From Acidimicrobiia bacterium (lineage in GTDB: Bacteria > Actinomycetota > Acidimicrobiia > Spongiisociales > UBA5794), in NCBI GenBank assembly GCA_030066875.1, contig JASJAS010000005.1, positions 6,080 through 70,079 of the forward strand: a stretch of DNA of 64,000 bases. The letters are read 5' to 3'. The notes under the pieces are model-generated. The model was not told where the DNA came from. It saw only the letters and a list, made by a program, of their open reading frames with translations, and did not search any database. How positions within the stretch are numbered: the first letter of the stretch is position 1; the number at the start of each line of letters is the position of its first letter. Positions 1,539 to 36,113 of the stretch are shown one piece after another. Position numbers and translations under genes: made by a program.

Positions 1539-1554
1539 GGATTATCGATTATCG
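1539..1554. promoter_or_regulatory. Operator-like site S1 (GGATTATCGATTATCG)
   Basis: Contains the recurrent 11-mer ATCGATTATCG. It is intergenic, 66 bp upstream of the ATG at 1620, and overlaps the -35 position relative to TAGAAT at 1565-1570. Confidence 0.6.
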
Positions 1555-1619
1555 GTGATCCGGCTAGAATGGCTGTGTCCTGTAGCGCGGTCGGAGGGCC
1601 GTATCGGAAGGAGACAGCA

Positions 1620-2630
1620 ATGCTCAAGGTCGCCCAGGTAGGTCTCGGCTGGTGGGGAGCTCAGGTCACCAAGGTCTTGCAGGGAAGCGAGAAGATCGAG
1701 GTCATTTGTGGGGTGGATCCGGCGCAACCCATTGCCGACAAGTACACGGCGGATTTCGGGCTCTCTGTCTACTCCGACTACCAGGAAGCCCTGGACGATC
1801 CGGCCGTCGAAGGCGTGATTCTCACCATTCCACACCGGCTTCACGAGTCGATGCTGTTGCAAGCGGTCGCCGCGGGGAAGCAGGTCTTTTGCGAGAAGCC
1901 GCTGTCGCTCGACGTCGCCAGCGCCAGACGAATGATCCAGGCGTGCGACGACGCCGGGCTCGTGATGGGCATCGGTCATGAGCGGCGTTTCGAGCCGGCC
2001 TGGGAAGAGATGAAGCGGATGGCGGACGCCGGCGAGTTTGGCACAATCCTCCATATGGAAGCCCATTGGAGCCACGACCGGTGGCTCAACATGGCGGCGG
2101 ACAACTGGCGGGGGAGCAAGGAAGAGTCGCCGGCAGCAGGTTGGACTGGGATGGGCGTGCACCTGAGCGACATGATGCTCAGCTTGGCGGGTGAGGTAGT
2201 CGAGGTGCACACTCACGTCGAGAAGCGCATCCTCGCCATTCCCACCGGAGACGTCGTCTCGGTTCACTTCAAGTTTGCCGACGGTTCCACCGGCCACATC
2301 GCCGCACTCTCAGCGACACCCGACTATGCGCGACTGGCGGTCTTCGGCAGCCACGCATGGGCCGAGGCGCGGGAGACCCAGCATGTTGATCCCGGCGGAA
2401 CCACCAACTTCTACCTGAGGCGACGTGGTGACGCAGAGCAAACCCGAACCGACTTCGAACCTGCCAGCCCGGTCAAGGCCGGCTACGAACACTGGGCCGA
2501 TGCAGTCGCCGGTCGGGTCGAGTACCGGTTCAGCAACGAAGAGAGACTCGGCAACGTGGCGATTCTGGAGTCGTTGGTGCGCTCATCTGAGACAGGCCAA
2601 CCGGAGCCGGTACAGAGATTTGCCGAGTGA
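1620..2630 (+). CDS. Gfo/Idh/MocA-family NAD(P)-dependent oxidoreductase
   Basis: N-terminal Rossmann motif MLKVAQVGLGWWG, then FCEKPL and GHERRFEP motifs. GGAAGGAG RBS precedes the ATG at 1620. The ORF-track start at 1569 is probably an upstream extension. Confidence 0.85.
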   Translation: MLKVAQVGLGWWGAQVTKVLQGSEKIEVICGVDPAQPIADKYTADFGLSVYSDYQEALDDPAVEGVILTIPHRLHESMLLQAVAAGKQVFCEKPLSLDVASARRMIQACDDAGLVMGIGHERRFEPAWEEMKRMADAGEFGTILHMEAHWSHDRWLNMAADNWRGSKEESPAAGWTGMGVHLSDMMLSLAGEVVEVHTHVEKRILAIPTGDVVSVHFKFADGSTGHIAALSATPDYARLAVFGSHAWAEARETQHVDPGGTTNFYLRRRGDAEQTRTDFEPASPVKAGYEHWADAVAGRVEYRFSNEERLGNVAILESLVRSSETGQPEPVQRFAE

Positions 2631-2673
2631 GCTTAAGGCTCCGTTCGGCTGCTTGGACACGTAGGATCAGGAG

Positions 2674-2703
2674 TTGACGTGAAGGCAGGTTCATCCGTAG
2701 TCT
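2674..2703 (+). promoter_or_regulatory. Sigma-70-like promoter candidate TTGACG-18-TAGTCT
   Basis: Hexamers read directly. The -10 ends 3 nt before operator site S2. Confidence 0.35.
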
Positions 2704-2705
2704 AT

Positions 2706-2721
2706 GCGTGATCGATTATCG
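2706..2721. promoter_or_regulatory. Operator-like site S2 (GCGTGATCGATTATCG)
   Basis: Contains ATCGATTATCG. It is intergenic and lies immediately downstream of a candidate -10, about 283 bp upstream of the ATG at 3004. Confidence 0.55.
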
Positions 2722-3003
2722 AGGATCGTTGTGGATCATGGTCGAGAGCCAATGAGGGCAGGCTGTTCCGCTCGCCTCGAACGTCCCTGCAGATTCGTTT
2801 GCTCCCCAAGCAGCACTCACGTCTTTCCGCTGTCAATGCTGTTTCGCCGTGCGGAACAGACATCATCCGTCACCGGCTGTCGGTCGCGGCGCGTCCCGAG
2901 GGAGCCGCACCGAGATCGCCGCGATCACGAAGGGAGATGAAGCGCAACCTTGGCCGCTGACGGCCATCAGGACACGTAGTTGGACAGGAAGGAGATCCGC
3001 CGT

Positions 3004-4847: not shown

Positions 4848-4876
4848 TCGACTTTCCCCCAGGTACGTGATATTCT
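4848..4876 (+). promoter_or_regulatory. Promoter candidate TCGACT-17-TATTCT
   Basis: Hexamers read directly. The -10 ends 1 nt before operator site S3. Confidence 0.35.
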
Positions 4877-4892
4877 CGATAATCGATTATCG
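4877..4892. promoter_or_regulatory. Operator-like site S3, perfect 16-bp palindrome CGATAATCGATTATCG
   Basis: Perfect dyad symmetry. It is intergenic, 42 bp upstream of the ATG at 4934. Confidence 0.7.
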
Positions 4893-4933
4893 GGGAATCT
4901 GGGTTTTGGCGAGGGATGAGAAGGAGCGACGAC

Positions 4934-6592: not shown

Positions 6593-7567
6593 CTATCCGG
6601 ACATGGCTGAGATCGCGTCGACCACACGTTCTACCGACGGGATGGCCAGGTCTTCTAGCTCGCCGGCCGCCGGGAGGGGGATGTGTGGAGTGGTGACGCG
6701 GACAATGGGGCCGTCCAGATCCCAGAAGGCCTCCTCGGCGACGAGTGACGAGATCTCGGCACCCCAGCCCACCAGACGTGGGTTCTCCTCGACCGTGGCA
6801 AGCCGGGTGGTCTTGGCAACCGAATTCAAGATCGTCTGCGTGTCCAGAGGGACGAGCGAGCGTAGGTCAATGACCTCCGCCGAGATACCCAACCCGCCGA
6901 GAATCTTGGCGGCGTCGAGAGCGGTGTGAACCATGGCCGCCAGAGCGACGATCGTCACGTCATCGCCCTCACGCAGGACCCGTGCCGTGCCGAGGGTGTC
7001 GACGATTTCGCCGTCCGGGACTTCACCCTTGGTAGCAAACAGTGCTTTGTGCTCAAAGACAATCACCGGATCGGGGTCGCGGATCGCAGCAGCCATCAGG
7101 CCGATGACGTCGGCCGGAGTGGCCGGCGCCACTACCTTGAGGCCGGGAACTGCCATCGCCCAATTCTCGAGACTCTGGGCGTGCTGACCGCCAAAGCGAG
7201 ATCCGCCACCATTGGCCGTGCGAATCACCAGCGGCAGCTCGACTTGTCCGCCCGTCATGTACCGGGTCTTGGCGATCTGGTTGGCGACTATGTCCCAACA
7301 TGTCGCCAAGAAGTCGCTGAACATCAACTCCCCAACCGGAATCAGGCCGTTCATAGCGGCCCCCATGATCATTCCGGTGATGGCCTCCTCCGAGATAGGA
7401 GTGTCACGTACTCGCGTGGGTCCAAACTGCTCGTAGAGCCCAACCGTGGTCTTGAAGACGCCGCCGGCCTTGGCGACATCTTCGCCAATGAGGACAACAC
7501 GCTCATCGCGCTCCATCTCCTGGGCGAGCCCGCGGGCCACAGCGTCGCGATAACTCAGTTCCGCCAT
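6593..7567 (-). CDS. TPP-dependent 2-oxoacid/acetoin dehydrogenase E1 component, beta subunit
   Basis: MAELSYRDAVARGLAQEMERDERVVLIGEDV is a typical E1-beta N-terminus. The start at 7567 overlaps the alpha-subunit stop. The ORF-track start at 7759 is an upstream extension. Confidence 0.85.
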   Translation of the reverse strand: MAELSYRDAVARGLAQEMERDERVVLIGEDVAKAGGVFKTTVGLYEQFGPTRVRDTPISEEAITGMIMGAAMNGLIPVGELMFSDFLATCWDIVANQIAKTRYMTGGQVELPLVIRTANGGGSRFGGQHAQSLENWAMAVPGLKVVAPATPADVIGLMAAAIRDPDPVIVFEHKALFATKGEVPDGEIVDTLGTARVLREGDDVTIVALAAMVHTALDAAKILGGLGISAEVIDLRSLVPLDTQTILNSVAKTTRLATVEENPRLVGWGAEISSLVAEEAFWDLDGPIVRVTTPHIPLPAAGELEDLAIPSVERVVDAISAMSG

Positions 7568-8538
7568 GACGAGCCTCCATCGGCCCAGACGTCGGTCAGG
7601 AGTACGGCCGGATCGGGTGGGGGAGCGTTCTTCGAGGCCTCGGTAGCCGCGTCCACCTCGGCGGCTGCCTTGGCTTCGATCTCGTCGAGCTTCGCCGGCT
7701 CGACCCCCAACGACAACAGGCGTTCCCGGTAGATGTCGATGGGATCGCGCTTCAGCCACTCCTCGACTTCCTCGTCGGGCCGGTACTTCCCCGGATCAGC
7801 CCTCGAGTGTCCTTTGTGCCGATAGGTGAGCGCTTCTATCAGAGAGGGGCCCTCACCGGCGCGGGCCCGCTGGTAGGCGGCTACCGCGACTTCGTAGACG
7901 GCATCGGCGTCATTTCCGTCGACGACGATCCCTTCGAGACCGTATGCGGAGGCCCGATCGGCGGCGGGATGCTCGACCGCGATCACGTCGCTGATCGCCG
8001 TGTATTCCATGTAGAGGTTGTTCTCACAGACGAACACCACCGGGAGATCCCAGACGGCGGCCATATTGAGCGACTCGTGAAACGCCCCGATGTTGGTGGT
8101 CCCATCTCCGAAGAAACACACGGAAACCTGATCCGTACCTCGCAACTGCGCCGCCCACGCCGCTCCTGCCGCCACCGGTAAGTGGGCTCCGACTATGGCG
8201 TACGAGCCCATCGCGCCCTTACTCACGTCGGTGAGATGCATCGAGCCGCCTTTGGCCTCGCAGATGCCGTTCGAACGTCCCATCAGTTCACCCATCAGGG
8301 CGTTCATGGGTGCGCCCCGCAAGAGTGTGTGGTTGTGACCGCGGTAGGTGCAATACGACATGTCGTCGGGCTGCATGGCGACCGCGAACCCAGCAGCCAC
8401 GGCTTCCTGGCCGAGGCCCAGGTGCGTGGTGCCCTTGACGAGTCCTTGCATGAACAGGTCGTAGGCGCGCTTCTCGAAGTAACGGGCGCGCACCATGCCG
8501 TCATACATTGCCAGCCTGATGTCTAGTGCTATCTCCAT
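7555..8538 (-). CDS. TPP-dependent 2-oxoacid/acetoin dehydrogenase E1 component, alpha subunit
   Basis: TPP-binding motif GDGTTNIGAFHESLNMAAVWDLPVVFVCENN. Confidence 0.85.
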   Translation of the reverse strand: MEIALDIRLAMYDGMVRARYFEKRAYDLFMQGLVKGTTHLGLGQEAVAAGFAVAMQPDDMSYCTYRGHNHTLLRGAPMNALMGELMGRSNGICEAKGGSMHLTDVSKGAMGSYAIVGAHLPVAAGAAWAAQLRGTDQVSVCFFGDGTTNIGAFHESLNMAAVWDLPVVFVCENNLYMEYTAISDVIAVEHPAADRASAYGLEGIVVDGNDADAVYEVAVAAYQRARAGEGPSLIEALTYRHKGHSRADPGKYRPDEEVEEWLKRDPIDIYRERLLSLGVEPAKLDEIEAKAAAEVDAATEASKNAPPPDPAVLLTDVWADGGSSWRN

Positions 8539-8671: not shown

Positions 8672-8687
8672 CAGTAATCGATTATCG
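8672..8687. promoter_or_regulatory. Operator-like site S4 (CAGTAATCGATTATCG) in a divergent intergenic region
   Basis: Contains TAATCGATTATCG. It lies between the E1-alpha start (8538, minus) and the UPF0261 start (8887, plus). Confidence 0.6.
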
Positions 8688-8886
8688 AAGATAGAGGATT
8701 TGAGATCGTATTGCTACTGAGGGCGTCCTCAGAGACAACAGGAGAAGGGCCCACGGTGGAAGTCGGAGTGAAGCACTGCTTGTTCCCCACGAGTAGTCGG
8801 GTCGGAATCAACCGTATGAATGATCACTCCATGCCCCTCTGCACGCCTGCCGCCACCGCCACCAACCAGAAGGGCGAAGGCTGATC

Positions 8887-10137
8887 ATGCCCACTGTGGG
8901 CCTTCTGGGCGCTCTTGACACGAAAGGTGCAGAATACGCGTTTCTGCGCGATCGGATCGAAGGATCCGGGTGCGGCGTGATCATGATCAATGCCGGCGTC
9001 ATGGCTGATCCGGATTACCCCGTGGACTATTCACGAGAGGATGTCGCTGCGGCGGCGGGGGTCGACATAACTGCACTATTGGCTGCAGGAGACCGCGGTG
9101 CGGCCGTGACCCGCCAAGCCGAAGGAGCCACCGCGCTCGTCGTCCGCCTTTTCGAGGAGGGTCGCATCGACGGGCTGCTGGGCATGGGGGGGTCGGGTGG
9201 TACCACGCTGGTGAGTCAGGCGATGCGTGGGCTCCCGGTGGGGTTTCCCAAGCTGCTCGTTTCGACAATGGCATCGGGAGATACGTCTCCATATGTGGAT
9301 ACTTCCGACATCACGATGATGTATTCCGTCGTCGACATCGCGGGAATCAACGCCGTTTCCGCGCAGATCCTGACCAACGCGGCCGCCGCCATCACCGGCA
9401 TGGCTGTTGGCTACGAATCGGGCCGACCGGTTTCTCGAGGGCGACCCGCCGTGGGAGCCACCATGTACGGGACCACAACTCCGTGTGTGAGCACCGCAAA
9501 GCGGTGGCTCGAGGACGCCGGCTTCGAGGTGTTGGTCTTCCACGCCAACGGTCCCGGAGGTCGGGCGATGGAGGCGTTGATGCGAGACGGCCACATCGCG
9601 GCGGCTCTCGACATAACCACGACCGAACTAACAGACGAGCTAGCCGGGGGTACAACCACGGCCGGCCCCGACCGCCTCGAATTGGCCGGGTCGCTCGGGC
9701 TTCCGCAGGTGGTTTCGGTCGGCAGTGTGGAGCAGATCACGTTCTCCCCGCCGAGCGCAATCCCCGCAGAGTATGCAGACCGGCTGTCGTACGAACACAA
9801 CCAATCGGTCACCCTGATTCGGAGTGACGCCAAGGAGATGGCACGACTGGGCCGTGTGATGAGCGACAAGCTCAACGCGGCCAAGGGGCCGGTGTCTGTC
9901 TTCCTGCCACTACGAGGCACCTCAGAGTATGCGGTCGCCGGCGCTGTATTCCATGACCCTGAGGCGGACGAAGCTCTCTTCGAGTCTCTCCGGGTCAACC
10001 TCGATCCCGAGGTCGAGTTGATCGAGATGGACACCCACATCAACGATCCCGTCTTCGCGGTAGCGATGGCCGAGAAACTCGCCGAGCTGTTCGGTGATCT
10101 GGAAGGGACTGTCAACCCGAAGGGGTCGACACCATGA
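8887..10137 (+). CDS. UPF0261 family protein (Tm-1-like N-terminal nucleotide-binding module)
   Basis: The N-terminus MPTVGLLGALDTKGAEYAFLRDRI and the overall glycine-rich pattern fit UPF0261. Its stop overlaps the next gene as ATGA. Confidence 0.7.
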   Translation: MPTVGLLGALDTKGAEYAFLRDRIEGSGCGVIMINAGVMADPDYPVDYSREDVAAAAGVDITALLAAGDRGAAVTRQAEGATALVVRLFEEGRIDGLLGMGGSGGTTLVSQAMRGLPVGFPKLLVSTMASGDTSPYVDTSDITMMYSVVDIAGINAVSAQILTNAAAAITGMAVGYESGRPVSRGRPAVGATMYGTTTPCVSTAKRWLEDAGFEVLVFHANGPGGRAMEALMRDGHIAAALDITTTELTDELAGGTTTAGPDRLELAGSLGLPQVVSVGSVEQITFSPPSAIPAEYADRLSYEHNQSVTLIRSDAKEMARLGRVMSDKLNAAKGPVSVFLPLRGTSEYAVAGAVFHDPEADEALFESLRVNLDPEVELIEMDTHINDPVFAVAMAEKLAELFGDLEGTVNPKGSTP

Positions 10138-10994
10138 ACGGACGAGAGGCGCTCGCCAGGCTGCGCAAAACGGTCGCCGACGGCGGAGTGATCATCGGCT
10201 CGGGAGCGGGGACCGGCATCTCGGCCAAGCTAGCCGAGGCCGGCGGTGCCGACCTGATCATCGTCTACAACTCCGGTCGGTACCGGATGGCCGGTCGCGG
10301 CTCGCTTTCCGGCATGATGCCCTACGGCGACGCTAACGCCATCGTGCTCGACATGGCCGGCGAGGTTCTGCCCATCGTCGGCAACACACCGGTCCTGGCG
10401 GGCGTCTGCGGAACGGACCCGTTTCGAATCATGGGGAGCTTTCTCGACACCGTCGCCGCCGCCGGCTTTGTAGGTGTGCAGAACTTCCCGACGGTGGGGC
10501 TAATCGATGGGACCTTCCGACAGAACCTCGAAGAGACCGGAATCAGCTATGACCTCGAGGTGGCGATGATCAAGTCGGCGAGGGAGAAGGGCTTGCTCAC
10601 CGCACCTTACGTATTCGATGCTCGTCAGGCCGAAGCGATGACTGGTGCCGGAGCCGATCTGGTTGTCGTCCATGTTGGGCTGACGGTGTCCGGATCAATC
10701 GGCGCCCAGACGGCTCGCTCGATGGATGAGTCCATCGACATGATCCAGGAACTCGGGGATGCCGCACGCGCGGTCAGAGATGACGTTCTAGTCCTGTTTC
10801 ACGGCGGTCCGATTGCCGCCCCCGAGGACGTTGAACACGTACTCACCCGCACCACCGGAACCCATGGCTTCTTTGGCGCCTCGAGTGTTGAGCGTTTGCC
10901 GGTCGAGGCTGCGGTGACAGAAACGATGAAACAGTTCAAGAAAACAGCCAGGGGACGGCACACCTCTGGTGCCGGAAAGGAAGCACTCATATGA
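10134..10994 (+). CDS. Phosphoenolpyruvate hydrolase-like TIM-barrel protein (usual partner of UPF0261)
   Basis: GGADLIIVYNSGRYRMAGRGSL..GVQNFPTVGLIDG pattern. Translationally coupled to the UPF0261 gene. Confidence 0.7.
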   Translation: MNGREALARLRKTVADGGVIIGSGAGTGISAKLAEAGGADLIIVYNSGRYRMAGRGSLSGMMPYGDANAIVLDMAGEVLPIVGNTPVLAGVCGTDPFRIMGSFLDTVAAAGFVGVQNFPTVGLIDGTFRQNLEETGISYDLEVAMIKSAREKGLLTAPYVFDARQAEAMTGAGADLVVVHVGLTVSGSIGAQTARSMDESIDMIQELGDAARAVRDDVLVLFHGGPIAAPEDVEHVLTRTTGTHGFFGASSVERLPVEAAVTETMKQFKKTARGRHTSGAGKEALI

Positions 10995-11067
10995 CTGACG
11001 ACCAGCAAGTCCTCAGCGGCGAGGCGATCTCCTGTGAGTGCGGTGCCGAACGAGGAGGGAGAACGTC

Positions 11068-11772
11068 ATGACCCTTCCGACGGAACGCCGCTCCGATCCC
11101 GTCGCTCGCAATGTGCTGAGCGAGCAGGTCAAAGACCGCATCTTGCAGTGGATTCTCGAAGGAGAGCTGGCGCCCGGCTCACGCATCATCGAGACCAGGG
11201 TGGCCCGCGAACTCGGGGTCAGCCAAGCCCCGGTCCGCGAAGCGCTGCGTGACCTGACGACCCTGGGTGTTGTCGAGATGCAGCCCTATCGCGGCGCGAG
11301 CGTCCGACAGCCAAGCAAAACAGATCTAGTGGAGGCAATGGAGGTGCGCGCTGAACTGGAGGCGTTGGCCGCCCGCCAAGCCGCCACCAGGATGACGCAA
11401 GCGTGCCTTGACGAATTGCAGGACCTCATCGATGAGATGCACCGGCTGGCCGAGGCGGGAGACGCGCATGGTCACGCTCTCAACAACACCGCCTTCCACG
11501 GCACGGTTGTCCGGGCGTCCGGCAACAAGACGTTGTTGCGCATGTGGTCGATGCTGGAGCCCTATGCCAGGACCTATGTAACGGCGATGCTGCCTGGTAC
11601 CGACCTCGTGTGGCTGGGGGATCGTCATAGCGCGATCGTTGAGGCCCTCACGGCCGGTGATCCAGAACAGGCAGCAGAGACGATGCGAGTGCATGCCCGT
11701 GAAGCCGAGGAGCTGGTGCTGGCCATGGATGAAGCGGCGTTTGGTGGAGCGGAGGTCAACGCTGACCTCTAG
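11068..11772 (+). CDS. GntR-family transcriptional regulator with FCD (FadR C-terminal-like) domain
   Basis: Winged-HTH segment RIIETRVARELGVSQAPVREALRDL followed by a helical C-terminal domain. GGAGGGAG RBS precedes the ATG at 11068. Confidence 0.85.
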   Translation: MTLPTERRSDPVARNVLSEQVKDRILQWILEGELAPGSRIIETRVARELGVSQAPVREALRDLTTLGVVEMQPYRGASVRQPSKTDLVEAMEVRAELEALAARQAATRMTQACLDELQDLIDEMHRLAEAGDAHGHALNNTAFHGTVVRASGNKTLLRMWSMLEPYARTYVTAMLPGTDLVWLGDRHSAIVEALTAGDPEQAAETMRVHAREAEELVLAMDEAAFGGAEVNADL

Positions 11773-20984: not shown

Positions 20985-21009
20985 CCCTTCGCAAGGAGGG
21001 AGGGAGCCT

Positions 21010-26374: not shown

Positions 26375-27232
26375 CTAACTGGTAGCCGTCAGTTTCTCGT
26401 AAAGCGACTTGGCGTTCCACTCGTTGATGTAATCCATCATGTATTCCTGGCCGATATCCACCGGGTAGCGGTCTTTGAAGTGGACCCGCTCCATCGTCTC
26501 TTCCTTCGACCAGCCCTTGGCGACGGCGACGGCGACGGCCGTCTTCCACTCCATGAGCATCGAGCGTTGTACTGCCAGGTACTCCTTGGTCGTTACCGGA
26601 CCGTGGCCGGGTACAACGTGATCGACTTCCAGTTGCCCGATTCGTTCGAGAGCGGCCAGCCAGCCATCGACATCAGACGTCATTAACCAGGTCTGGCATT
26701 CGCTGAAGATCGTATCGCCGGTGAACACCGCCCGTTCCTCGGGAACATGAACGGCAATCTGCCCCGGTGTATGTCCCGGCGTGTGGAGAAGCTCAAACGT
26801 ATGTCCACCCACCCGGAGCGTCAGATCACCGCTGAAGACGATCTGGCCCTTGTTGGGATCGGCGTAATACTCGTCGCGATCGGGGAAGATCTCCTCGCCA
26901 GCGGGATCGTCGGTCGGTAGCGCCTCTTTGGCATATGCAAACGGATCGAGTTCGGGACCGACAACCATGAAGTTGTCATAGACGCCCTGATGGTGGACGA
27001 CTTGGCCCGCGCCCTTGAAGTAGTAGTTGCCAAAGATGTGGTCGACGTGATGCTCGGTGTTGATGACGTAGCGGATCGGACCGTGCTGCTCCGCGTCCTT
27101 TCTCATCTGAACGGCCTTGGTAGGCAGCTGCGGTGTGTCGATTACGACGACGCCATCGGATGTCGTTACATAGCTCGGGTTGCAGCCGCGCACCTTGGTT
27201 TCGGTGAAGATATTGCTGGTGACGTTCTCCAT
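26375..27232 (-). CDS. Metallo-beta-lactamase-fold hydrolase
   Basis: INTEHHVDH (HxHxDH) and downstream HTPGHTPG motifs. GGAG RBS. Confidence 0.8.
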   Translation of the reverse strand: MENVTSNIFTETKVRGCNPSYVTTSDGVVVIDTPQLPTKAVQMRKDAEQHGPIRYVINTEHHVDHIFGNYYFKGAGQVVHHQGVYDNFMVVGPELDPFAYAKEALPTDDPAGEEIFPDRDEYYADPNKGQIVFSGDLTLRVGGHTFELLHTPGHTPGQIAVHVPEERAVFTGDTIFSECQTWLMTSDVDGWLAALERIGQLEVDHVVPGHGPVTTKEYLAVQRSMLMEWKTAVAVAVAKGWSKEETMERVHFKDRYPVDIGQEYMMDYINEWNAKSLYEKLTATS

Positions 27233-27244
27233 TGGTTCTCCTGC

Positions 27245-28030
27245 CTATTGGGTCGCCGTGAGCCCACCATCGATGGTGAGGATCTGCCCCGTGACGAACG
27301 ATGATGCGTCGGATGCGAACAGCAGTACCGGACCTAGCAAGTCCTTGGTTTCGCCGACCCGGCCTATCGGGATGCGGCTGACCACGCCAGCCTTGAAATC
27401 CGGATCGTCGAGCAGCATCGCTACCTGTGGCGTATCGACGAAAGTAGGTGCAATGGCGTTCACCGTGATTCCATACTTGGCCCACTCAGTGGCCCACTGT
27501 CGGGTGAGCGAACTAACCGCTCCCTTGGCGGCAACGTAGGCCGAATAGCCCGCATTGATACCTAGCTGAGCGCGTACCGACGAGATGTTGATCACCTTGC
27601 CGCCTTCGCCCTGCTTGACCATCTGTTTGACCGCAGCCTGGGTGGGCAGCAGCGTTGCGGTCAGGTTCAAGTCCATGATCCAGTTCCACTCTTGCTCGGG
27701 GTAGTCCTGGGCCTCAAACAACACCTTGCCTGCGCCGCCGCCGATGGCGTTGACGATGATGTCGAGCCGGCCGTAGTGGGCGACCGTCTCGGCTACGGCG
27801 CGCTCGGCTGCTTCCTTGTTCGTCAAGTCGGCGGCTATAGGAAGGGGTTGGGAGCCCGCTTCCCGCATGCGTTGGCACGTGCGATCCAAGCCATCCCCAT
27901 CTCGATCAACGACGGCAATCGAGGCGCCCGCCTCGCACATCCCGGCGGCGAGGGCGGATCCGATGCCGCCGCTCCCACCAGGAATGAAGGCGACCTTGCC
28001 CTCCAGGCTGAACATATCGATATTGCTCAT
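27245..28030 (-). CDS. Short-chain dehydrogenase/reductase (SDR)
   Basis: GGSGGIGSALA cofactor motif and YVAAKGAV catalytic YxxxK. RBS AGAGAGGGAA precedes the ATG at 28030. Confidence 0.85.
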   Translation of the reverse strand: MSNIDMFSLEGKVAFIPGGSGGIGSALAAGMCEAGASIAVVDRDGDGLDRTCQRMREAGSQPLPIAADLTNKEAAERAVAETVAHYGRLDIIVNAIGGGAGKVLFEAQDYPEQEWNWIMDLNLTATLLPTQAAVKQMVKQGEGGKVINISSVRAQLGINAGYSAYVAAKGAVSSLTRQWATEWAKYGITVNAIAPTFVDTPQVAMLLDDPDFKAGVVSRIPIGRVGETKDLLGPVLLFASDASSFVTGQILTIDGGLTATQ

Positions 28031-28071
28031 CGGTTCCCTCTCTTTAGTCACCTTCAGTTGTGGTGGCACCT

Positions 28072-29022
28072 CTACCTATGCGCCGCCAGGAACCCTTTGA
28101 CCGCGCTCTCGACATGGGGGGCAGAGATCCCGTATTTGTCGAGGAGCGCATCGTTTGGCCCGGACTCGCCGAAGACGTCCTGGAGCCCGTGTCGTTTCAT
28201 CGGCAGGGGTGAGTTCTCGGCAAGCGCCTCGGCGATCGCTCCACCAAGACCGCCGACGATCGTATGCTCCTCGCTGGTCATCACCAGGCCCGTCTTTTCG
28301 GCCGCAGCGACCACGGCATCGACGTCGAGCGGCTTGATCGTCGGCACGTGCACCAGATGGACATCGATCCCGTCTGCGGCGAGTTTCTCACTGGCCTCGA
28401 AGGCGCGGGCAGTCTGGGTACCGGTGGCAAACAACGTCAGGTCGCTTCCTTCGCGCACCGTGACCAGCTTGCCCAGCTCGAACTTGTAGTCCTCATCCAT
28501 AAGGATCGGCGTGTTGGGACGTGTCAGCCGGAAGTAGACCGGGCCTTCGTATTCGATGATTGCTTCGAGGGCGGTCCGAGTTTCCACTTCGTCGACCGGG
28601 GCGACAACGGTCATGTGCGCCATGGCCCGCATGATCGAAACGTCATCGAACATCAGGTGGGTCTTGCCCGTCATCCCTGCCAGCAGCCCGGCGTAGCCGC
28701 CCATCATCTTGACGTTGGCGTTGGGTTGGGCGATCAGCACCCGGATCGAGTCATGGGCCCGCGAGACGATGAAGCAGCTAAAGGTGCTGACGATGGGGAT
28801 CAAACCCAGCGTGGCCATGCCAGCCGCCATCCCCAGCATGTTCATTTCGGTGATGCCCATCTGGAAGAAGCGATCTGGGTAGGCCTTCTCGAAGATGTCG
28901 GTCCTTGTGGAGCTTCCGGTGTCACCATCGAGGACGACAATGCGATCGTTGGTAGCCGCCAATTCGGTGATCGTCTCGCCAAACGCAACCCGGAGCGCCT
29001 TGCCTGGTGCCAGCGTCGTCAT
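28072..29022 (-). CDS. Transketolase-like protein, C-terminal (pyrimidine-binding) subunit
   Basis: FQMGITEMNMLGMAAGMA motif. Its start overlaps the stop of the N-terminal subunit gene. Confidence 0.85.
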   Translation of the reverse strand: MTTLAPGKALRVAFGETITELAATNDRIVVLDGDTGSSTRTDIFEKAYPDRFFQMGITEMNMLGMAAGMATLGLIPIVSTFSCFIVSRAHDSIRVLIAQPNANVKMMGGYAGLLAGMTGKTHLMFDDVSIMRAMAHMTVVAPVDEVETRTALEAIIEYEGPVYFRLTRPNTPILMDEDYKFELGKLVTVREGSDLTLFATGTQTARAFEASEKLAADGIDVHLVHVPTIKPLDVDAVVAAAEKTGLVMTSEEHTIVGGLGGAIAEALAENSPLPMKRHGLQDVFGESGPNDALLDKYGISAPHVESAVKGFLAAHR

Positions 29023-29885
29023 TCTGCACCCCCTTCACCTAGTTCCTCCATCGCTTGGGCAAACTCCTCGTCGGTCGGCACCTTGCTGTGCCACTTGTAG
29101 TTGCCCTCCATGTACGAGACACCCTTGCCCTTGACGGTGTGTGCCACGATCGCCACAGGAACCCCGCTCACCTCTTTGGCCGCAGCGAGCGTGCTGAGAA
29201 TCTCGGGGATGTTGTGCCCATCCATCTCCATGGTGTGCCAGCCAAATGCACGCCAACGGTCGGCGAGTTGGGATTCGGTGTACGGCGTGATCCGCTCTTC
29301 AACCGATGAGCCCGTCCACCCGAACTGTTGGAGCTTGTTGTGGTCGATGATGGCAATGATGTTGTCGAGCTTGTAGCGGGCTGCGACGTGGGCACCCTCC
29401 CACACCACTCCCTCGTTGCACTCTCCGTCGCCAAGCATCACATAGGTGGTGAAGTCACGCCCGGCGGCACGGCCGCCCAGTGCGATCCCCAGCGCACCGG
29501 CGAAACCGAGACCCAGCGAACCCGATGACATATCGATTCCCGGGGTCACCGTCATGTCGGGATGACCCTGCAGGCGGGAGTCGATGGCGTCGAATGTGAG
29601 CAGCTCTTCGACCGGGAAGAAGCCGCGCAGCGCCAACATCGTGTACAGCGCAATCGAGCTATGACCTTTGGACAGGACAAATCGATCGCGGTCGGGCCAT
29701 TCGGGCTCCTCGGGGCGAACGTTCATTACCCCGAAGTACAGAGCAGCCAGCATCTCAGCCGCTGAGTAGGGACCACCGACGTGACCGCCGCCGGCATGCT
29801 TGACCGCCTCGAGGATGCGGACCCGGGCTTGCCGGGCGTACTCCGCCATGTCCTCCGGCGTGTATGTCATTGTTGCTTGGGTCAT
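29019..29885 (-). CDS. Transketolase-like protein, N-terminal (TPP-binding) subunit
   Basis: GGGHVGGPYSAAEMLAALY and GDGECNEG motifs. GAGGAGGA RBS precedes the ATG at 29885. Confidence 0.85.
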   Translation of the reverse strand: MTQATMTYTPEDMAEYARQARVRILEAVKHAGGGHVGGPYSAAEMLAALYFGVMNVRPEEPEWPDRDRFVLSKGHSSIALYTMLALRGFFPVEELLTFDAIDSRLQGHPDMTVTPGIDMSSGSLGLGFAGALGIALGGRAAGRDFTTYVMLGDGECNEGVVWEGAHVAARYKLDNIIAIIDHNKLQQFGWTGSSVEERITPYTESQLADRWRAFGWHTMEMDGHNIPEILSTLAAAKEVSGVPVAIVAHTVKGKGVSYMEGNYKWHSKVPTDEEFAQAMEELGEGGAE

Positions 29886-29910
29886 GAATGCTGTCCTCCT
29901 CGGATGAGCT

Positions 29911-30276
29911 CTAGTCCTCTTCGTACGAGCCCGGAACAACCGGGGGAGAGAACGACGTGACCATCGTCAGCGGCTCGTCACCGTCATTCACGGTTTGATG
30001 ATGAAGGCCGATCGGGATGTAGACCACCGTGCCCGGCTCGAGATCCACCGTGTTGAGAGGGGAGACGAGCTTGCCCGTGCCCGAGACGATGTAGATGACT
30101 TCCTCTTGGGTGGGATGGACATGACCTTCGGGGGCTGAACCGGCAGGGAACTCGGAGAAGCCGACGGTGATGTTCTTGGACCCGGTAACCGACGGTCCGA
30201 CGTAGTGAAGCCAGCTTCGACCCGGCAAGTCGAAGACCTCGGCCTTTTCCTTTTTGACGGCCTTGAGTGGTTCCAC
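29911..30276 (-). CDS. Cupin-domain protein
   Basis: GHVHPTQEEVIYIVSGTG..VVYIPIGLHH cupin motifs. The GTG at 30276 is preceded by AGGAGG. The ORF-track ATG at 30321 would lie inside operator site S6. Confidence 0.7.
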   Translation of the reverse strand: MEPLKAVKKEKAEVFDLPGRSWLHYVGPSVTGSKNITVGFSEFPAGSAPEGHVHPTQEEVIYIVSGTGKLVSPLNTVDLEPGTVVYIPIGLHHQTVNDGDEPLTMVTSFSPPVVPGSYEED

Positions 30277-30314: not shown

Positions 30315-30330
30315 AGATCATCGATTATCG
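30315..30330. promoter_or_regulatory. Operator-like site S6 (plus strand AGATCATCGATTATCG)
   Basis: Contains ATCGATTATCG. It lies 39 bp upstream of the minus-strand GTG at 30276 and just downstream of the minus-strand promoter candidate. Confidence 0.6.
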
Positions 30331-30337
30331 AGTATCT

Positions 30338-30367
30338 AGGATAGTTGGTGGTGGAGAGTGCGGTCAA
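30338..30367 (-). promoter_or_regulatory. Promoter candidate TTGACC-18-TATCCT (minus strand)
   Basis: Hexamers read on the reverse complement. The -10 lies 7 nt upstream of site S6. Confidence 0.35.
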
Positions 30368-31196: not shown

Positions 31197-32624
31197 CTAC
31201 CACTCGCAGACGTTGTCGGCGTCACACTCGGCCTGAACACCGATCAACTCGATAATCTCGAGGGCACGATCACCGTCGAGCGGAATCGGGTCGCCAACGC
31301 TGCCGTCAGCGTTGAACGGGGTGTAGGCGCGGGCGACATCGTTGACGCCACCATCGCTGTATGTACCCGAACCGGTGACACCTTCGTAGTCGATGTCGTT
31401 GCCGGCCCTGATCTCTGCCAGGCACTCTGCATACGTGTAGCAAACGGTTCCCGGGGGCTCTCCAACGTCATTCATGGCCTGTGCCCATGCACTTGCGGCG
31501 TACGAGCCACCGTACTCGACGGCCAGTGCCGTCTGCACGAGCAGGTCGTACGTCGAGAAGTGATACAGGTCCGCTGCAGGGCCGAATTCGGCCTCATTCA
31601 CCGAGTCCCACAGCGGCTGGAAGAACTCCCAGGCGGGGGTGTCTTCGTTGGCTGCAAACGCGGCAAAGCCGATACCCTGCTGCGTGCCGACGACATCGCC
31701 GCCCAGAGTATCGATGAATTCAGGCTGGATCCAGCCGGTCTCACCGATCCAATTCAGCGAAAGGCCGGCCTCGGCGGCTGCCTTGATCAACGTTGCCGAC
31801 TCGACCGAACCGGCTTGAACGATGACCGCATCCGGATTGAGCTCGGCGATCCGCTGCGCCTCCGCCGTATATGACGGCTGCTCGGCCGGAACGTCGATGC
31901 GGGCTAGGAGCTCCAGCCCAATGGCCTCGGCGGCCTTCTCAGCCGCTCCGGACGCGAGCTGGAAGCCCTCGACCTGAGTAGCGAAGATCACCAGGGTCTC
32001 AGCGCCAATGTTCTCGGCATGCATCACGCCGGAAATGCCCAGACCCTCATCGAGGCCCTGTGCCCGGAACAGCGGCTCTGCAGCCGTGCCGCCCAGGTTG
32101 CCGGGAATCGATCCACCGTGGACCGTTGGACCGAGCGGCGAGTCGTTCTCCGCCCATTGCTCGATCATGAAGTCGCGATAGGTCCGATACCCGTGAGCAA
32201 TGCTCACAATGATCTCGGCGTTGTGCTGCTCGAGACACGTACGAGCTGCTTGAGCTTCGCCGGGCGTACCGAGGTCTTCACCGTAGTACTCCCAGGTCCT
32301 GCCCAGCGGCGGATCCAGGTTGATCACCTGCTCGATCGGGAACTTGACGTCTGCCGTCAGTGACGGTCCATACGCGGCGAATTCGCCCGTGAAGTACGCG
32401 AGCTCGCAGACCGCCACCGGTTCGGCGGCCGCCGGAGCAGCCGTCGTTTCTGCCGGGGCGGCAGTAGTTTCTGCCGGGGCTGCGGTTGTCTCTGCCGGGG
32501 CTGCGGTTGTCTCGGCCGGTTCGCCGCCGTCACCGGCGTCGTCGTCGCCACCGCATGCCGCTGCGATCAGCGCAAAGGCGAAGATCACGGCCAGTAGTGG
32601 TAGAAATGTCTTCAGTTTTCTCAT
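31197..32624 (-). CDS. ABC transporter substrate-binding lipoprotein (Leu/Ile/Val-binding-protein-type fold) with a repeat linker
   Basis: Signal peptide plus lipobox LIAAAC, then an acidic/PAETTAA x4 linker and a type-I periplasmic-binding-like body. It lies downstream of the Liv-type permease and ATPase genes. Confidence 0.8.
   Translation of the reverse strand: MRKLKTFLPLLAVIFAFALIAAACGGDDDAGDGGEPAETTAAPAETTAAPAETTAAPAETTAAPAAAEPVAVCELAYFTGEFAAYGPSLTADVKFPIEQVINLDPPLGRTWEYYGEDLGTPGEAQAARTCLEQHNAEIIVSIAHGYRTYRDFMIEQWAENDSPLGPTVHGGSIPGNLGGTAAEPLFRAQGLDEGLGISGVMHAENIGAETLVIFATQVEGFQLASGAAEKAAEAIGLELLARIDVPAEQPSYTAEAQRIAELNPDAVIVQAGSVESATLIKAAAEAGLSLNWIGETGWIQPEFIDTLGGDVVGTQQGIGFAAFAANEDTPAWEFFQPLWDSVNEAEFGPAADLYHFSTYDLLVQTALAVEYGGSYAASAWAQAMNDVGEPPGTVCYTYAECLAEIRAGNDIDYEGVTGSGTYSDGGVNDVARAYTPFNADGSVGDPIPLDGDRALEIIELIGVQAECDADNVCEW
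32436..32519 (-). repeat. 4 x 21-bp tandem repeat encoding (PAETTAA)4
   Basis: Read directly. The units differ at synonymous positions. Confidence 0.9.
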
Positions 32625-32667
32625 ATATCTCTCTCCCGTCGTGTCGCTTCCTTGCCGAAAATGGCTT

Positions 32668-33384
32668 CTAGATCCGGTAGCCCTCCTTGAGCTTCTCTGT
32701 GGTGAGCTCTGCGGCGTCCATCACCGCAAAGGCCTCACCAAGGCTCAGCACCATGACCCGGTCGGCGACCTCGAGCGCCTTGGTGGCGTTCTGCTCCGCC
32801 AGGATGATGCTGACACCTCTGGTCTGGTGGATTTCGTCGATCTTCTCGAAGAACATGTCGACATACAGCGGTGACAGCCCGGCCGTCGGTTCGTCGAGCA
32901 GCAGCAGCACGGGGTCCTGCATCAGGGCTCGCGCACACGCCACCATGCGCGATTCGCCGCCGGAGAGTGTTCCCGCCAGTTGACCCTGGAGGGCTTCGAG
33001 ATCTGGGAACAGATCGAATACCTCGCGCATCCGCTCATAAGCGGACCGCTCGCCGATCATGCCGCCGACGAGAAGATTCTCCAGGACCGTCAACTCGGGA
33101 AACACCCCGCGCTCCTGCGGGACATAGCCCATCCCGCGAGCTGCCGTCTCGAATGCCGGGATGTGGGTCACGTCCTCGCCCTGGAAGGTGATCGCACCCG
33201 CCGTGAGTGGAATGAGTCGCGCCAGTGTTCCTAGAAGCGTTGTCTTGCCGGCACCGTTGGCCCCCAGCACCGAGAACACCTCGTTGCCAACCTCCAGGTC
33301 GATGTCTTTGAGGACGTTGACGCCGTGATACCCGCTACGCAGGCCGCTGACCTCGAGCACGAGTGAGCCGTTTGTCTCAGACAT
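32668..33384 (-). CDS. ABC transporter ATP-binding protein (LivF-like)
   Basis: Walker A GANGAGKTT, signature LSGGE, Walker B LLLLDEP. Confidence 0.85.
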   Translation of the reverse strand: MSETNGSLVLEVSGLRSGYHGVNVLKDIDLEVGNEVFSVLGANGAGKTTLLGTLARLIPLTAGAITFQGEDVTHIPAFETAARGMGYVPQERGVFPELTVLENLLVGGMIGERSAYERMREVFDLFPDLEALQGQLAGTLSGGESRMVACARALMQDPVLLLLDEPTAGLSPLYVDMFFEKIDEIHQTRGVSIILAEQNATKALEVADRVMVLSLGEAFAVMDAAELTTEKLKEGYRI

Positions 33385-34171
33385 GCCCTTCTCCCAGGTA
33401 CTTCTCGATGACGGTCTTGTTTTCCCGAATCTCCGCGGGGCTGCCGTGCATCACAACGCTGCCTTCTGCCATGAAGTGCACATCATCGCTCAGATTCCAA
33501 ATTACGTTGAGATCGTGCTCGACGATGACCACCGAAGTCCCGGCAACAGCAAGGTCGCGAATGATCGCCATGACCTTCTCTGTTACGTCGTCTGGCAGAC
33601 CGGCAGTCGGCTCATCGAGCAGCAGGAACCTCGGCTCGAGCAACAAACAGCGGATGATGTCGAGTAGCTTCTTCTCCCCGGCGGAGCCGGCAAACCGATA
33701 GGGATCACCAAGCTCGAAATACTCCATGTACTCATGCACCCGCTCCACGGCTGCGTCGTAGACCTGGGTTTCGACGAAAAGGCGATGGGGTTGCTCGTAC
33801 TTGGCTTGAGCGATGGCAAGCAGCATCGAGTCGAGGATCGTGAGCTTGTCGAAGTCCATGATGACCTGGTTGCTCTTGACGAGACCGTGCGGAGCCATCC
33901 AGTGCGTTGGCAGATCGGAGATCACGACGTCGCCCCCGCCGTTGGCGTTGGACATGGTGATCGTGCCGCGGTCGAGCGGGGTGGAGTGCATGATCATCCG
34001 CATCAGCGTCGTCTTGCCTGCCCCGTTGGGCCCGATCAGGCCCTCGATGGCGTGATCGCCAAGGGTGAGCTCGTCGACGTCGACGACAACGCGCCCGCTG
34101 AAGCTCTTGACCGCGTTCTGGATGTGGATCTGGGGACGAATGATGGTCGCCACCGGCGTGTCATCAACCAT
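33377..34171 (-). CDS. ABC transporter ATP-binding protein (LivG-like)
   Basis: Walker A GPNGAGKTT, Walker B FLLLDEPTAGL, and a divergent signature GSAGEKK. Confidence 0.8.
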   Translation of the reverse strand: MVDDTPVATIIRPQIHIQNAVKSFSGRVVVDVDELTLGDHAIEGLIGPNGAGKTTLMRMIMHSTPLDRGTITMSNANGGGDVVISDLPTHWMAPHGLVKSNQVIMDFDKLTILDSMLLAIAQAKYEQPHRLFVETQVYDAAVERVHEYMEYFELGDPYRFAGSAGEKKLLDIIRCLLLEPRFLLLDEPTAGLPDDVTEKVMAIIRDLAVAGTSVVIVEHDLNVIWNLSDDVHFMAEGSVVMHGSPAEIRENKTVIEKYLGEGHV

Positions 34172-35111
34172 GGACCCTCCGCATCAGCTTGTCGCGACGC
34201 ATGTCGCCGAGGATCCCCAAAGGACGGAACAGCAGGACGACGATCAACAAAGCTCCAAAGACAATCTCCTTGATGTTTGGGATCGCCTGTCCGTACCACT
34301 CCTTGGGCAGCGGTAGATAGCTCTGCACGATGATGTCGAAGAAGCCAATAATGAGGAACCCACCTATGACGGCGCCCCAGGCGCGAGCGGTCCCGCCGAG
34401 AACCAGCGCGACCATTGCCGCCAAGGTGACGTCGATACCTAGATTCTCTGGGGCCAGGAATCGCTCCATCACTCCAAAGAGCGCACCAATCAGACCCATT
34501 CCGGCCGACCCGACTGCAAACAACCACAGCTTGGTGCGAAACGCTGGCTTGCCGAGGCTCTTGGCCAGCGGCTCATTGCCCCCGATGGCGATCAGCAGCC
34601 GACCGTAGGGGGTGCGGTGCACCCACCACACATACAGAAAGATCAGGGCGACCACGATGCTGACGATCACGAGCCAAAGGAACTCGTCCGCTTTGACCGT
34701 TCCCACGTCGTAGGGGAACTTGAGTCCGCCGAGACCAAGGGCGCCTCCGGTGAGGTCCTGTTCCGTCGTCGCCAGAATGAATACGGCGGTGGCAAAACCA
34801 AGCGTCCCGACGAGAACCCCATCCTCGTCGAGATCGGCGATGAGCCATCCAACGAGTAGACCGGACAGCCCGGCGACGAGGGTTCCGAACGCCAGCGAGA
34901 TGAGGAATGCCCACAGATCGCCGAACGGCCAGTCCACCTTGGTGAAGAGCACACCAAACGAGTACATCCCGATTCCGAAGAAGCCAACGACTCCGAAGTT
35001 GGCGATCCGGGTCAGCCCCAACTGCAGATGTAGCAACAACCCGAGCCCAACGATGACCACAACCGAAAAGAGCCCGGAGATGAGGAACGCGTCTAGCCAG
35101 TCGAGATTCAT
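34164..35111 (-). CDS. Branched-chain-amino-acid-type ABC permease (LivM-like)
   Basis: Polytopic membrane protein in the Liv gene order, overlapping its neighbours. Confidence 0.8.
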   Translation of the reverse strand: MNLDWLDAFLISGLFSVVVIVGLGLLLHLQLGLTRIANFGVVGFFGIGMYSFGVLFTKVDWPFGDLWAFLISLAFGTLVAGLSGLLVGWLIADLDEDGVLVGTLGFATAVFILATTEQDLTGGALGLGGLKFPYDVGTVKADEFLWLVIVSIVVALIFLYVWWVHRTPYGRLLIAIGGNEPLAKSLGKPAFRTKLWLFAVGSAGMGLIGALFGVMERFLAPENLGIDVTLAAMVALVLGGTARAWGAVIGGFLIIGFFDIIVQSYLPLPKEWYGQAIPNIKEIVFGALLIVVLLFRPLGILGDMRRDKLMRRVHG

Positions 35112-35113
35112 GG

Positions 35114-35989
35114 CTACACCTTCGCTGTCTCGATTGCGCGCTTGCTACGCCACTTCAGCAGCACGACGAATGCCACGATCAAGGCCAGTTGGGCGTACAG
35201 CACCTGACCAAATTGAAGTGTCATTGCAGCAAGGCCGATTCCGGTGAGGGCGCCGGTGATGATGACGCCGCCGAGTCCCTTCCTTCCGCCGACGACCACT
35301 ACCAGGAAGATGAAGAGGAACTGCCGCCAGCCCAGAAGCGGAGCCACTGCGGAGCTGACCCCGTAGAACGCCCCCGCCATCCCACCGGCCACACCGGCGA
35401 TAAACCAGATCAAGACCGTTACGAACAGCGGGCGAATGCCGCTGGCTTGCGCTAGGTCCTCATCGCTTGCCAGCGCCCTGATCTGCAGCCCAAAGCTCGA
35501 CCTCTGAATGAACAGGTAGAGGAGGAAGGAAAGCAGCGCAACGCTGGCCACGGCGAGGATGCGGAATGAACCGACGCCGACGCCTAGTACCCGAATGGTG
35601 TCTGGTGGCGGCACTTCGAAGAAACGCACCGGGTATCCGAAAACGAATTGGAGGCCGTGGCGGAGGACAATGGACAGGCCAAACGAGATGATGATCATCT
35701 CCAGCACACCCACGTTGAGCTTCTTGGCCGGACGGAAGATTGCGAAGTAGGTCCCGACGCTGATCAATCCTGCCATCAATCCGGCAGGGAGGAGGACCGT
35801 GTAGAAGTTCAGGTCGAAGGTCGTGTTGGTCCACATCCCGAAGTACGCACCCAGCGTGATGGTCTCGGAGTAGGCGACATTGATGAGACCGGTAAGGCGG
35901 TAGAGGAGCGCGAAGCCGATAGCGGCGAGGATGAGGGGTGCGTGTTCCGTGAGCCCAATGACGATTGAGTCGCTCAGGAAGTCGAGCAT
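35114..35989 (-). CDS. Branched-chain-amino-acid-type ABC permease (LivH-like)
   Basis: Polytopic membrane protein and first gene of the transporter unit. Confidence 0.8.
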   Translation of the reverse strand: MLDFLSDSIVIGLTEHAPLILAAIGFALLYRLTGLINVAYSETITLGAYFGMWTNTTFDLNFYTVLLPAGLMAGLISVGTYFAIFRPAKKLNVGVLEMIIISFGLSIVLRHGLQFVFGYPVRFFEVPPPDTIRVLGVGVGSFRILAVASVALLSFLLYLFIQRSSFGLQIRALASDEDLAQASGIRPLFVTVLIWFIAGVAGGMAGAFYGVSSAVAPLLGWRQFLFIFLVVVVGGRKGLGGVIITGALTGIGLAAMTLQFGQVLYAQLALIVAFVVLLKWRSKRAIETAKV

Positions 35990-36097
35990 CAGCTGTGGCC
36001 TCGATGCAGACTATCCGGGTTCTCGACACCGAGCAGAGTCCCTCTGATGGTACTCACACGTCCGTCCTTCCCGCAGGCGTAGCGTGACCCCTCTAAT

Positions 36098-36113
36098 TGA
36101 TAATCGATGATAG
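36098..36113. promoter_or_regulatory. Operator-like site S7 (plus strand TGATAATCGATGATAG)
   Basis: 13 of 16 matches to the perfect palindrome. It is intergenic, 109 bp upstream of the minus-strand ATG at 35989, and overlaps the candidate -10. Confidence 0.5.

Follow-up and report, generated by a model that had tools for sequence, protein, structure and literature searches.

An ATCGAT repeat array at seven intergenic sites of an acidimicrobial gene island, a probable operator of a local GntR/FCD repressor

Introduction

The window analysed here is a 64-kb stretch of DNA from an uncultured Acidimicrobiia bacterium, 36 kb of which form a gene island whose transcription units carry a short recurring element, built on the hexamer ATCGAT, in front of their first genes. 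Does this element control the island, and if so, which protein reads it? Our analysis suggests that the finding is real and that it is best explained as a repressor operator, which would define a regulon of approximately 31 genes. The motif is likely to be the operator of a local repressor, most probably the GntR-family protein with an FCD domain (GntR/FCD) that is encoded at 11068-11772 within the island itself.

Results

On the plus strand of the window, the 11-mer ATCGATTATCG starts at 1544, 2711, 4882, 8677, 18815 and 30320 (n = 6), in agreement with the six end positions given in an initial annotation of this DNA. A seventh match is the reverse-strand reading at 4877, which arises because the copy there is palindromic. 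These counts represent a statistical excess: in 100 dinucleotide shuffles the 11-mer occurred 0.03 times on average, the same value (~0.03) that the initial annotation had expected by chance, and seven copies were reached in none of the 100. The perfect 16-mer CGATAATCGATTATCG at 4877-4892 and the variant TGATAATCGATGATAG at 36098-36113, which has three mismatches and had also been described before, were both recovered.

The initial annotation had placed all copies between genes and had proposed that coding and intergenic DNA be scanned with a weight matrix. For this analysis, a matrix was built from all exact-core sites of the window and its relatives; its maximum is 40.6 bits, which site 4 nearly attains (40.2 bits). 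Matches of at least 10 bits were confined to the seven reported spots (Table 1), all of which are intergenic as judged from a rough gene list based on open reading frames (ORFs) that takes up ~91% of the window, a slight over-count, some ORFs overlapping. The sole further match in the window, a weak one of 9.5 bits at 3501-3522, lies within a gene, and the scan of 37-64 kb returned zero matches. Mononucleotide shuffles yielded 0.2 matches of at least 10 bits, as compared to 22 (overlapping) observed. The single hexamer ATCGAT is frequent in the window, with 47 copies that are mostly genic; the hexamer pair was found at the seven promoters only.

The same placement is seen in related DNA. We examined 103 related loci, comprising 23 genome loci anchored on the regulator gene and 80 metagenome loci anchored on the adjacent gene unk306, the latter drawn from more than 500 unk306 relatives in one metagenome scan. 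The gene cluster is conserved across these loci, with rearrangements, and the motif stands upstream of orthologs of the UPF0261/E1 alpha pair, the swivel-His protein, the aldehyde dehydrogenase (ALDH), the PPDK-N protein, LivH and the operon of the SDR and metallo-beta-lactamase (MBL) genes. It persists even where the regulator ortholog is only 48-64% identical to that of the window. Among 79 site clusters in 939 kb of these loci, a single one falls inside a mapped gene, though mapped genes account for 74% of the bases, so the separation from coding DNA extends to the relatives.

Orthologous counterparts were found for six of the seven sites. The counterpart of site 2 precedes the swivel-His ortholog in four loci (L005, L012, L022 and L026), and site 3 has counterparts in six (L003, L010, L012, L014, L022 and L026) and site 5 in eight (L001, L003, L005, L008, L012, L022, L026 and L028). 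Those of site 6 lie directly upstream of the SDR-MBL operon (L017, L021, L042, L096 and L102), and those of site 7 upstream of LivH orthologs (L010, L014, L017 and L086). For site 4, we aligned 18 orthologous spacers between the E1 alpha and UPF0261 genes, in which the sole invariant block was AATCGATTATCGARGATAG; in more distant loci the flanks of the motif could not be aligned. Thus, orthologs of six operons have kept the site while the DNA around it diverged, which was a check that the initial annotation had put forward. None of the loci examined has an intergenic region comparable to that before the Gfo/Idh/MocA gene of site 1; in L022 this gene follows the preceding gene directly.

The comparison of these sites also changed the picture of what is conserved. 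The initial annotation had taken an even 16-bp palindrome as the unit and had read its central CG as a hint of a LacI-type operator. However, the three left-most positions of the 16-mer are essentially unconserved, and to its right the bases A, R, G, A and T are conserved, such that conserved information runs 5-8 bases beyond it on that side. The consensus in this clade is TAATCGATTATCGARGAT. Matrix matches at shifts of ±7 nt occur at sites 1, 4, 6 and 7 and confirm a periodicity, and all sites can be written as three to four heptads with the pattern nnATCGA. Most commonly, sites of the more distant clade consist of two complete ATCGAT copies one base apart, TAATCGAT-K-ATCGATGA, a form that by manual count is found in 17 of the 28 sites listed for distant relatives. 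As read from these alignments, the unit is the self-complementary hexamer ATCGAT in two to four copies with a 7-bp period, the third unit being degenerate, and the dyad falls on the one base that separates neighbouring hexamers. Because ATCGAT is its own complement, the array is simultaneously a direct and an inverted repeat, and the perfect palindrome at 4877 is no more than an array of three units.

With the dyad between the hexamers rather than on the CG, the argument for a LacI-like operator falls away. There is some likeness, in that AATCGATT looks like the AANCGNTT core of LacI-family operators and a perfect even palindrome is present at 4877. In contrast to such operators, conservation over at least 43 sites is asymmetric about the CG, the left outer arm being the unconserved one, and no LacI-family gene was present in the 64 kb or detected in the related loci. 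We therefore rejected a LacI-type operator as a candidate.

We also considered how the arrays are placed relative to promoters, using 78 unique site contexts from the window and all related loci. In 42 of the 78, a promoter of the form TTG-N19-22-TAnnnT was found with its -10 element ending 6-11 nt before the first hexamer (mode 7-9 nt), and in ten more a promoter of this form lies on the opposite strand and ends between -6 and +1 relative to the array. In the window, a consensus scanner returned five promoter-like sites in 38 kb, three of which abut sites 5, 6 and 7. This distance is such that the expected transcription start is covered, as it would be with a repressor; the predicted overlap is with the start at sites 2-6, with the -10 at site 7 and with the -35 at site 1. 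An arrangement of this kind would be classical for repression by occlusion. The sites vary in their orientation with respect to the gene, and the aldehyde dehydrogenase site scores best on the strand opposite its gene.

Thus, what the initial annotation had said of a promoter-proximal, repressor-like site common to several transcription units (seven or eight carry it) stands, as does its view that a single regulator lies within the block; its palindromic unit and its LacI hint do not. Its promoter geometry was largely borne out, by the scanner at sites 5-7 and with weaker candidates at sites 1-4.

Which protein might bind the array? Only two DNA-binding proteins were found in the 64 kb, namely the GntR/FCD protein and, beside modABC at 51.7 kb, an XRE/PBP protein. 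The former matches the GntR winged helix-turn-helix (wHTH) domain (PF00392, 57 bits) and the FCD domain (PF07729, 92 bits), both above cut-off, and its best solved homologs (7xp0, 6z74 and 4p9f) are FadR-subfamily regulators. A protein 100% identical to it is annotated in an uncultured Acidimicrobiia metagenome-assembled genome (MAG). The Pfam map agrees that it is the sole regulator in the block, and it is also the sole regulator kept in the related clusters. An apparent second regulator in the distant clade, an unmapped gene between the site and the swivel-His gene, proved to be a DUF1097 membrane protein and was rejected.

The regulator and the motif are conserved together. The wHTH sequence ET[RQ]VARELG[VT]SQAPVREALR hardly varies among orthologs whose overall identity ranges from 100% to 48%, which parallels the invariance of ATCGAT. 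With a search range of 1.3 kb, the site was present in 39 of the 40 loci in which the regulator occurs and the upstream sequence is long enough; in the exception, L016, the operon is extended upstream and the site lies ~5 kb away. In the lineage of L052 and L100, the synteny TAL | DUF1097-swivelHis-unk306-Cox (L052:6175-10903), in which TAL is a transaldolase gene on the minus strand, occurs without the GntR gene, and no matrix match of at least 6 bits was found in its 20.9 kb. L038 and L072, which are syntenic with this lineage, have both the regulator and the site. The initial annotation had left the cognate factor open; the comparative evidence now favours the GntR/FCD protein as the candidate.

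The wHTH offers a further point of comparison. In FadR, Arg35 and Arg45 make guanine-specific DNA contacts, and their equivalents in the island regulator (wHTH positions 28 and 38) are Thr and Gln in all orthologs. A regulator that lacks both guanine-reading arginines fits an operator without GT/AC boxes.

In two MAGs that carry the cluster, a second gene copy 75% identical to the regulator was observed (L011:10001-10672 and L019:6009-6662), with no cluster genes near it. This paralog could be a second sensor for the same operators.

Together, these observations suggest a model. Two adjacent hexamers would form a 13-bp odd palindrome for one wHTH dimer, and a third or fourth hexamer would allow a second dimer to bind, in an overlapping or cooperative manner. 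The bound repressor would block RNA polymerase at eight transcription units with approximately 31 genes, its own operon included, and a pathway metabolite in the FCD domain would release it, so that the whole island is switched on. The regulator gene lies within the operon downstream of site 4, which is the best conserved of the sites, and the regulator is therefore probably autoregulated.

Discussion

Several points weigh against the assignment to the GntR/FCD repressor. The promoter candidates at sites 1-4 fall below the scanner threshold, with fewer than 9 of 12 consensus matches, and were located and judged by eye. The two paralogs in L011 and L019 have an identical recognition helix, and no ATCGAT pair occurs within 6-10 kb of them. 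The joint absence of regulator and site comes from one lineage, L052 and L100 having the same sequence. Moreover, 23 loci were anchored on the regulator itself, and the 80 loci anchored on unk306 are partly independent of it, the two genes being adjacent. The operator also lacks the GT...AC core that is common to most FadR-subfamily sites. Finally, the scan covered the window and the related loci, which leaves room for a distant regulator or for sites elsewhere in the genome.

This last point bears on the alternative that survives best, namely that the element is the operator of a trans-acting regulator encoded elsewhere (e.g. of the LacI, IclR or TetR type) and that the GntR/FCD protein binds something else. 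We regard it as unlikely. The missing GT/AC core, the resemblance of AATCGATT to the LacI-family centre AANCGNTT and a view limited to 64 kb of the genome would all accommodate such a protein, but no gene of this kind was found in the window or within 10 kb in the 103 loci, and the asymmetry of conservation about the CG argues against it. In the window and the loci, the sites are confined to this cluster, the GntR wHTH is co-conserved with the motif, and the site has been lost from the lineage that lacks the GntR gene.

It is also conceivable, if quite improbable, that the GntR/FCD protein binds these sites to activate transcription, or acts as activator and repressor alike. The majority of sites begin 6-11 nt past the -10 element, thereby covering +1, or overlap the -10, which is incompatible with polymerase binding, and with recognisable -35 and -10 elements an activator should be dispensable. 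Nevertheless, some FadR-subfamily proteins, FadR included, activate certain promoters, and site 1 overlaps a -35-like hexamer, a position that is open to an activator too.

A role in RNA, as a 5'-leader or riboswitch-like signal at the start of the transcript, appears very improbable. Although the motif is predicted to form the first ~20 nt of the mRNA at many promoters and two leaders are long (190-250 nt), no Rfam match was obtained at the gathering threshold or at E<=1, a 217-nt leader folds no better than its shuffles (z = +0.45), and only weak, inconsistent hairpins form locally. The self-complementary motif is found in either orientation with respect to the gene, and its overlap with the -10 at site 7 and the -35 at site 1 puts part of it outside the transcript. 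That the element is a dispersed repeat (a REP/MITE-like remnant), or an artefact of chance or base composition without regulatory function, can be practically dismissed: the 47 mostly genic copies in the window are of the single ATCGAT, whereas the pair is restricted to the seven promoters, has no extended repeat body and has unrelated flanks, is kept at orthologous promoters while the regulator ortholog drops to 48% identity, and lies in coding DNA in one of 79 clusters.

The reading as an operator of the GntR/FCD repressor can be compared with known members of the subfamily. The FadR-subfamily consensus is TKGT-N2-3-ACMA, often with additional, weaker half-sites 7-12 nt away from the centre (PMC4494728); FadR, PdhR, LldR, DgoR and GlcC govern local catabolic regulons (reviewed in PMC4494728). 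The island regulator shares with FadR-type repressors the GntR wHTH plus FCD architecture and a gene located inside the regulated cluster. The sites, like those of FadR type, have a single-base centre, G/C at ±3 and T/A at ±5, as in TKGT-N3-ACMA, a weaker extra half-site nearby and an operator that overlaps the promoter core. They differ in being ATCGAT-N-ATCGAT without GT/AC boxes, with A/T instead of T/A at ±2 and C/G at ±4, just as the regulator differs from FadR in having Thr and Gln for Arg35 and Arg45. Compared to local FCD regulators, the regulon is unusually large, with seven sites and approximately 31 genes.

Two members of the subfamily with other types of sites are informative. E. 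coli NanR binds a (GGTATA)3 operator as three dimers (PMC8012715), and its operator, like the one described here, is a short array of a repeated hexamer and not one simple palindrome. However, NanR has a different repeat with a period of 8 bp (unit TGGTATAW, PMC4494728) as opposed to 7 bp, and its unit, unlike ATCGAT, lacks self-complementarity. BioR, an atypical FadR-subfamily protein of biotin genes in Alphaproteobacteria, recognizes TTATMKATAA (cited in PMC4494728), which is also an AT-rich palindromic operator off the GT/AC consensus; it differs in sequence, in being a single short palindrome and in its biotin-gene target. A literature search combining ATCGAT, GntR and operator returned unrelated papers only, mostly on cloning sites, and no earlier account of such an operator, which is not proof of absence.

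The control logic itself is ordinary, that of an autoregulated local repressor acting on the promoters of a catabolic cluster. The new particulars are the ATCGAT-array operator, the wHTH without the canonical arginines and the large, widespread and uncharacterised island, one marker gene of which had more than 500 relatives in a single metagenome scan. The operator provides a sequence-level definition of which ~31 genes belong together, and this regulon boundary can guide the elucidation of the pathway and the choice of genes for co-expression. If the GntR/FCD assignment is true, the protein represents a non-canonical case for the GntR recognition code that is useful for the prediction of specificity. 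The natural loss of both the GntR gene and the operator in L052 and L100 is useful for testing the assignment.

A broader reading is possible, but we hold it only tentatively. It would see here a widespread lineage of FCD-type GntR proteins, with Thr and Gln in place of the guanine-reading arginines, which reads ATCGAT arrays at 7-bp spacing and defines a complete catabolic island common in Actinomycetota of soil, peat and sediment. On that broader reading, one, two or more dimers could bind the same array by using its overlapping palindromes, a mode undescribed for the family, and the island would be built around a MarK-type UPF0261 kinase, a barrel resembling phosphoenolpyruvate (PEP) hydrolase, a split RPH/PigC-like dikinase, a new P-loop protein and an LMW phosphatase.

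Features of the island and its surroundings

The gene map of the island (Table 1) is derived from Pfam annotation of the window proteins; naming of its enzymes with NCBIfam gave below-threshold or generic matches only.

Table 1. Arrays, candidate promoters and predicted transcription units in the window (coordinates in nt; TK, transketolase; MMSDH, methylmalonate-semialdehyde dehydrogenase; SD, Shine-Dalgarno sequence)
Feature	Coordinates	Strand	Position or content	Sequence	Score (bits)	Candidate promoter or remark
Site 1	1534..1562	+	upstream of Gfo/Idh/MocA gene	ATCATGGATTATCGATTATCGGTGATCCG; heptads TCATGGA-TTATCGA-TTATCGG-TGATCCG	22.9 and 19.8	-35 TTATCG 1542-1547 (overlapped by site); -10 TAGAAT 1565-1570
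Site 2	2708..2729	+	upstream of 593-aa swivel-His protein gene	GTGATCGATTATCGAGGATCGT	33.1	TTGACG 2674-2679, 18-nt spacer, TAGTCT 2698-2703
Site 3	4869..4900		upstream of MMSDH-type aldehyde dehydrogenase gene	ATAATCGATTATCGAGAATATC (best-scoring, - strand); three hexamer units, tCGAT-A-ATCGAT-T-ATCGg; contains perfect 16-mer	35.8 on -, 26.3 on +	abuts candidate -10 TATTCT 4871-4876
Site 4	8674..8702	+	between divergent E1 alpha/beta (-) and UPF0261-to-LMW-PTP operon (+)	GTAATCGATTATCGAAGATAGAGGATTTG	40.2	TTGCGA 8642-8647, 17-nt spacer, TATCCT 8665-8670
Site 5	18812..18833	+	upstream of PPDK-N/His-domain protein gene, GTG 18840	ATAATCGATTATCGAGGATGGA	38.3	18779-18807 (+), TTGACT, 17-nt spacer, GATAAT; 10/12 consensus match
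Site 6	30317..30345	+	upstream of minus-strand cupin-TK-SDR-MBL-MFS-PHP operon	ATCATCGATTATCGAGTATCTAGGATAGT	30.2 and 22.0	30367-30338 (-), TTGACC, 18-nt spacer, TATCCT
Site 7	36090..36121		upstream of minus-strand LivHMGF + binding-protein operon	heptads TAATTGA-TAATCGA-TGATAGA	22.1 on +, 18.3 on -	36136-36107 (-), TTGACG, 18-nt spacer, TATCAT; -10 overlapped by site
Unit 1	1620..2630	+	Gfo/Idh/MocA oxidoreductase	GGAAGGAGA (SD)		ATG 1620 with SD favoured over 1569
Unit 2	2980-4761	+	swivel-His protein			own site
Unit 3	4916-6448	+	CoA-acylating MMSDH-type (methylmalonate-semialdehyde-type) aldehyde dehydrogenase			own site
Unit 4a	6593..8538	-	thiamine pyrophosphate (TPP)-dependent dehydrogenase E1 alpha and E1 beta			divergent from site 4
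Unit 4b	8887..18753	+	ten genes: UPF0261, PEP_hydrolase-like, GntR, unk306, CoxM/S/L, cyclase-family hydrolase, Zn-ADH, LMW-PTP			
Regulator gene	11068..11772	+	GntR-family FCD (FadR-subfamily) regulator			third gene of operon downstream of site 4
Unit 5	18840..21483	+	PPDK-N + His-domain protein (714 aa), cupin			
Unit 6	24255..30276	-	cupin, split transketolase N/C, SDR, metallo-beta-lactamase fold, MFS transporter, PHP			cupin likely starts at GTG 30276 after AAGGAGG
Unit 7	31197..35989	-	LivH, LivM, LivG, LivF, Peripla_BP_6 binding protein			
Strong intrinsic-terminator-like hairpin	31176-31144	-	directly after binding-protein gene			14-bp stem, 10 GC pairs, then T run

In relatives, the synteny of the E1 alpha and E1 beta genes with site 4 is maintained and the gene order of unit 4b is conserved; its CoxM/S/L genes are of the molybdenum hydroxylase type. 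Untranslated leaders of ~250 nt (2730-2979) and ~190 nt (8703-8886) precede the swivel-His and UPF0261 genes, respectively, and a search of these 190-250-nt leaders for small ORFs or leader peptides yielded none that was convincing. The hairpin after unit 7 parts the Liv operon from a C_GCAxxG gene that lacks its own operator.

Phosphotransfer modules are unusually concentrated in the island (2980-4761, 8887-10994 and 18283-20984). The UPF0261 family is that of the ATP-dependent aromatic-ketone kinase MarK (PMC12624787), and the UPF0261 gene of the island is accompanied by that of the PEP_hydrolase-like barrel. The stand-alone protein of 593 aa combines a substrate-binding part with a PEP-utiliser swivel-His domain at its end, as assigned by Pfam, and resembles the C-terminal half of rifampin phosphotransferase and of PigC/RedH. 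The 714-aa protein has a PPDK-type ATP-grasp and a His domain without the PEP/pyruvate barrel, and an LMW phosphatase completes the set, which looks like a split small-molecule dikinase system. Phosphotransfer proteins, a molybdenum hydroxylase, a cyclase-type hydrolase, dehydrogenases, a split transketolase and two transporters together suggest that the island serves to take up an aromatic or heterocyclic compound and to degrade it with the help of phosphorylation.

The product of unk306 (306 aa, 11773-12693, plus strand; ortholog e.g. L001:5343-6218) has no Pfam or NCBIfam match, and its gene directly follows the GntR gene in nearly all loci that show this region. Its P-loop, FLGGESNHGKSM, is invariant, and a 12-sequence profile matched ATP-dependent PEP carboxykinase (PEPCK) weakly, in its P-loop region (E=0.009). 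It may be a new PEPCK/HprK-like kinase.

Several cluster genes seem to be interrupted or truncated in translation in two long related contigs, namely the GntR gene in L012 (1.03 Mb) and the ALDH gene, split in two, in L022 (733 kb), which looks like assembly frameshift errors rather than biology. Outside the regulon and without an operator, the segment 44462-48334 of the window carries a radical SAM, AMMECR1 and Memo-like trio together with a second radical SAM gene, an AmmeMemoRadiSam-type set. At 51689-55285, the XRE-type HTH/PBP-like protein is encoded directly upstream of molybdate-type ABC genes (binding protein, permease, and ATPase with TOBE). It is probably a molybdate regulator, which may be relevant given the molybdenum hydroxylases of the regulon.

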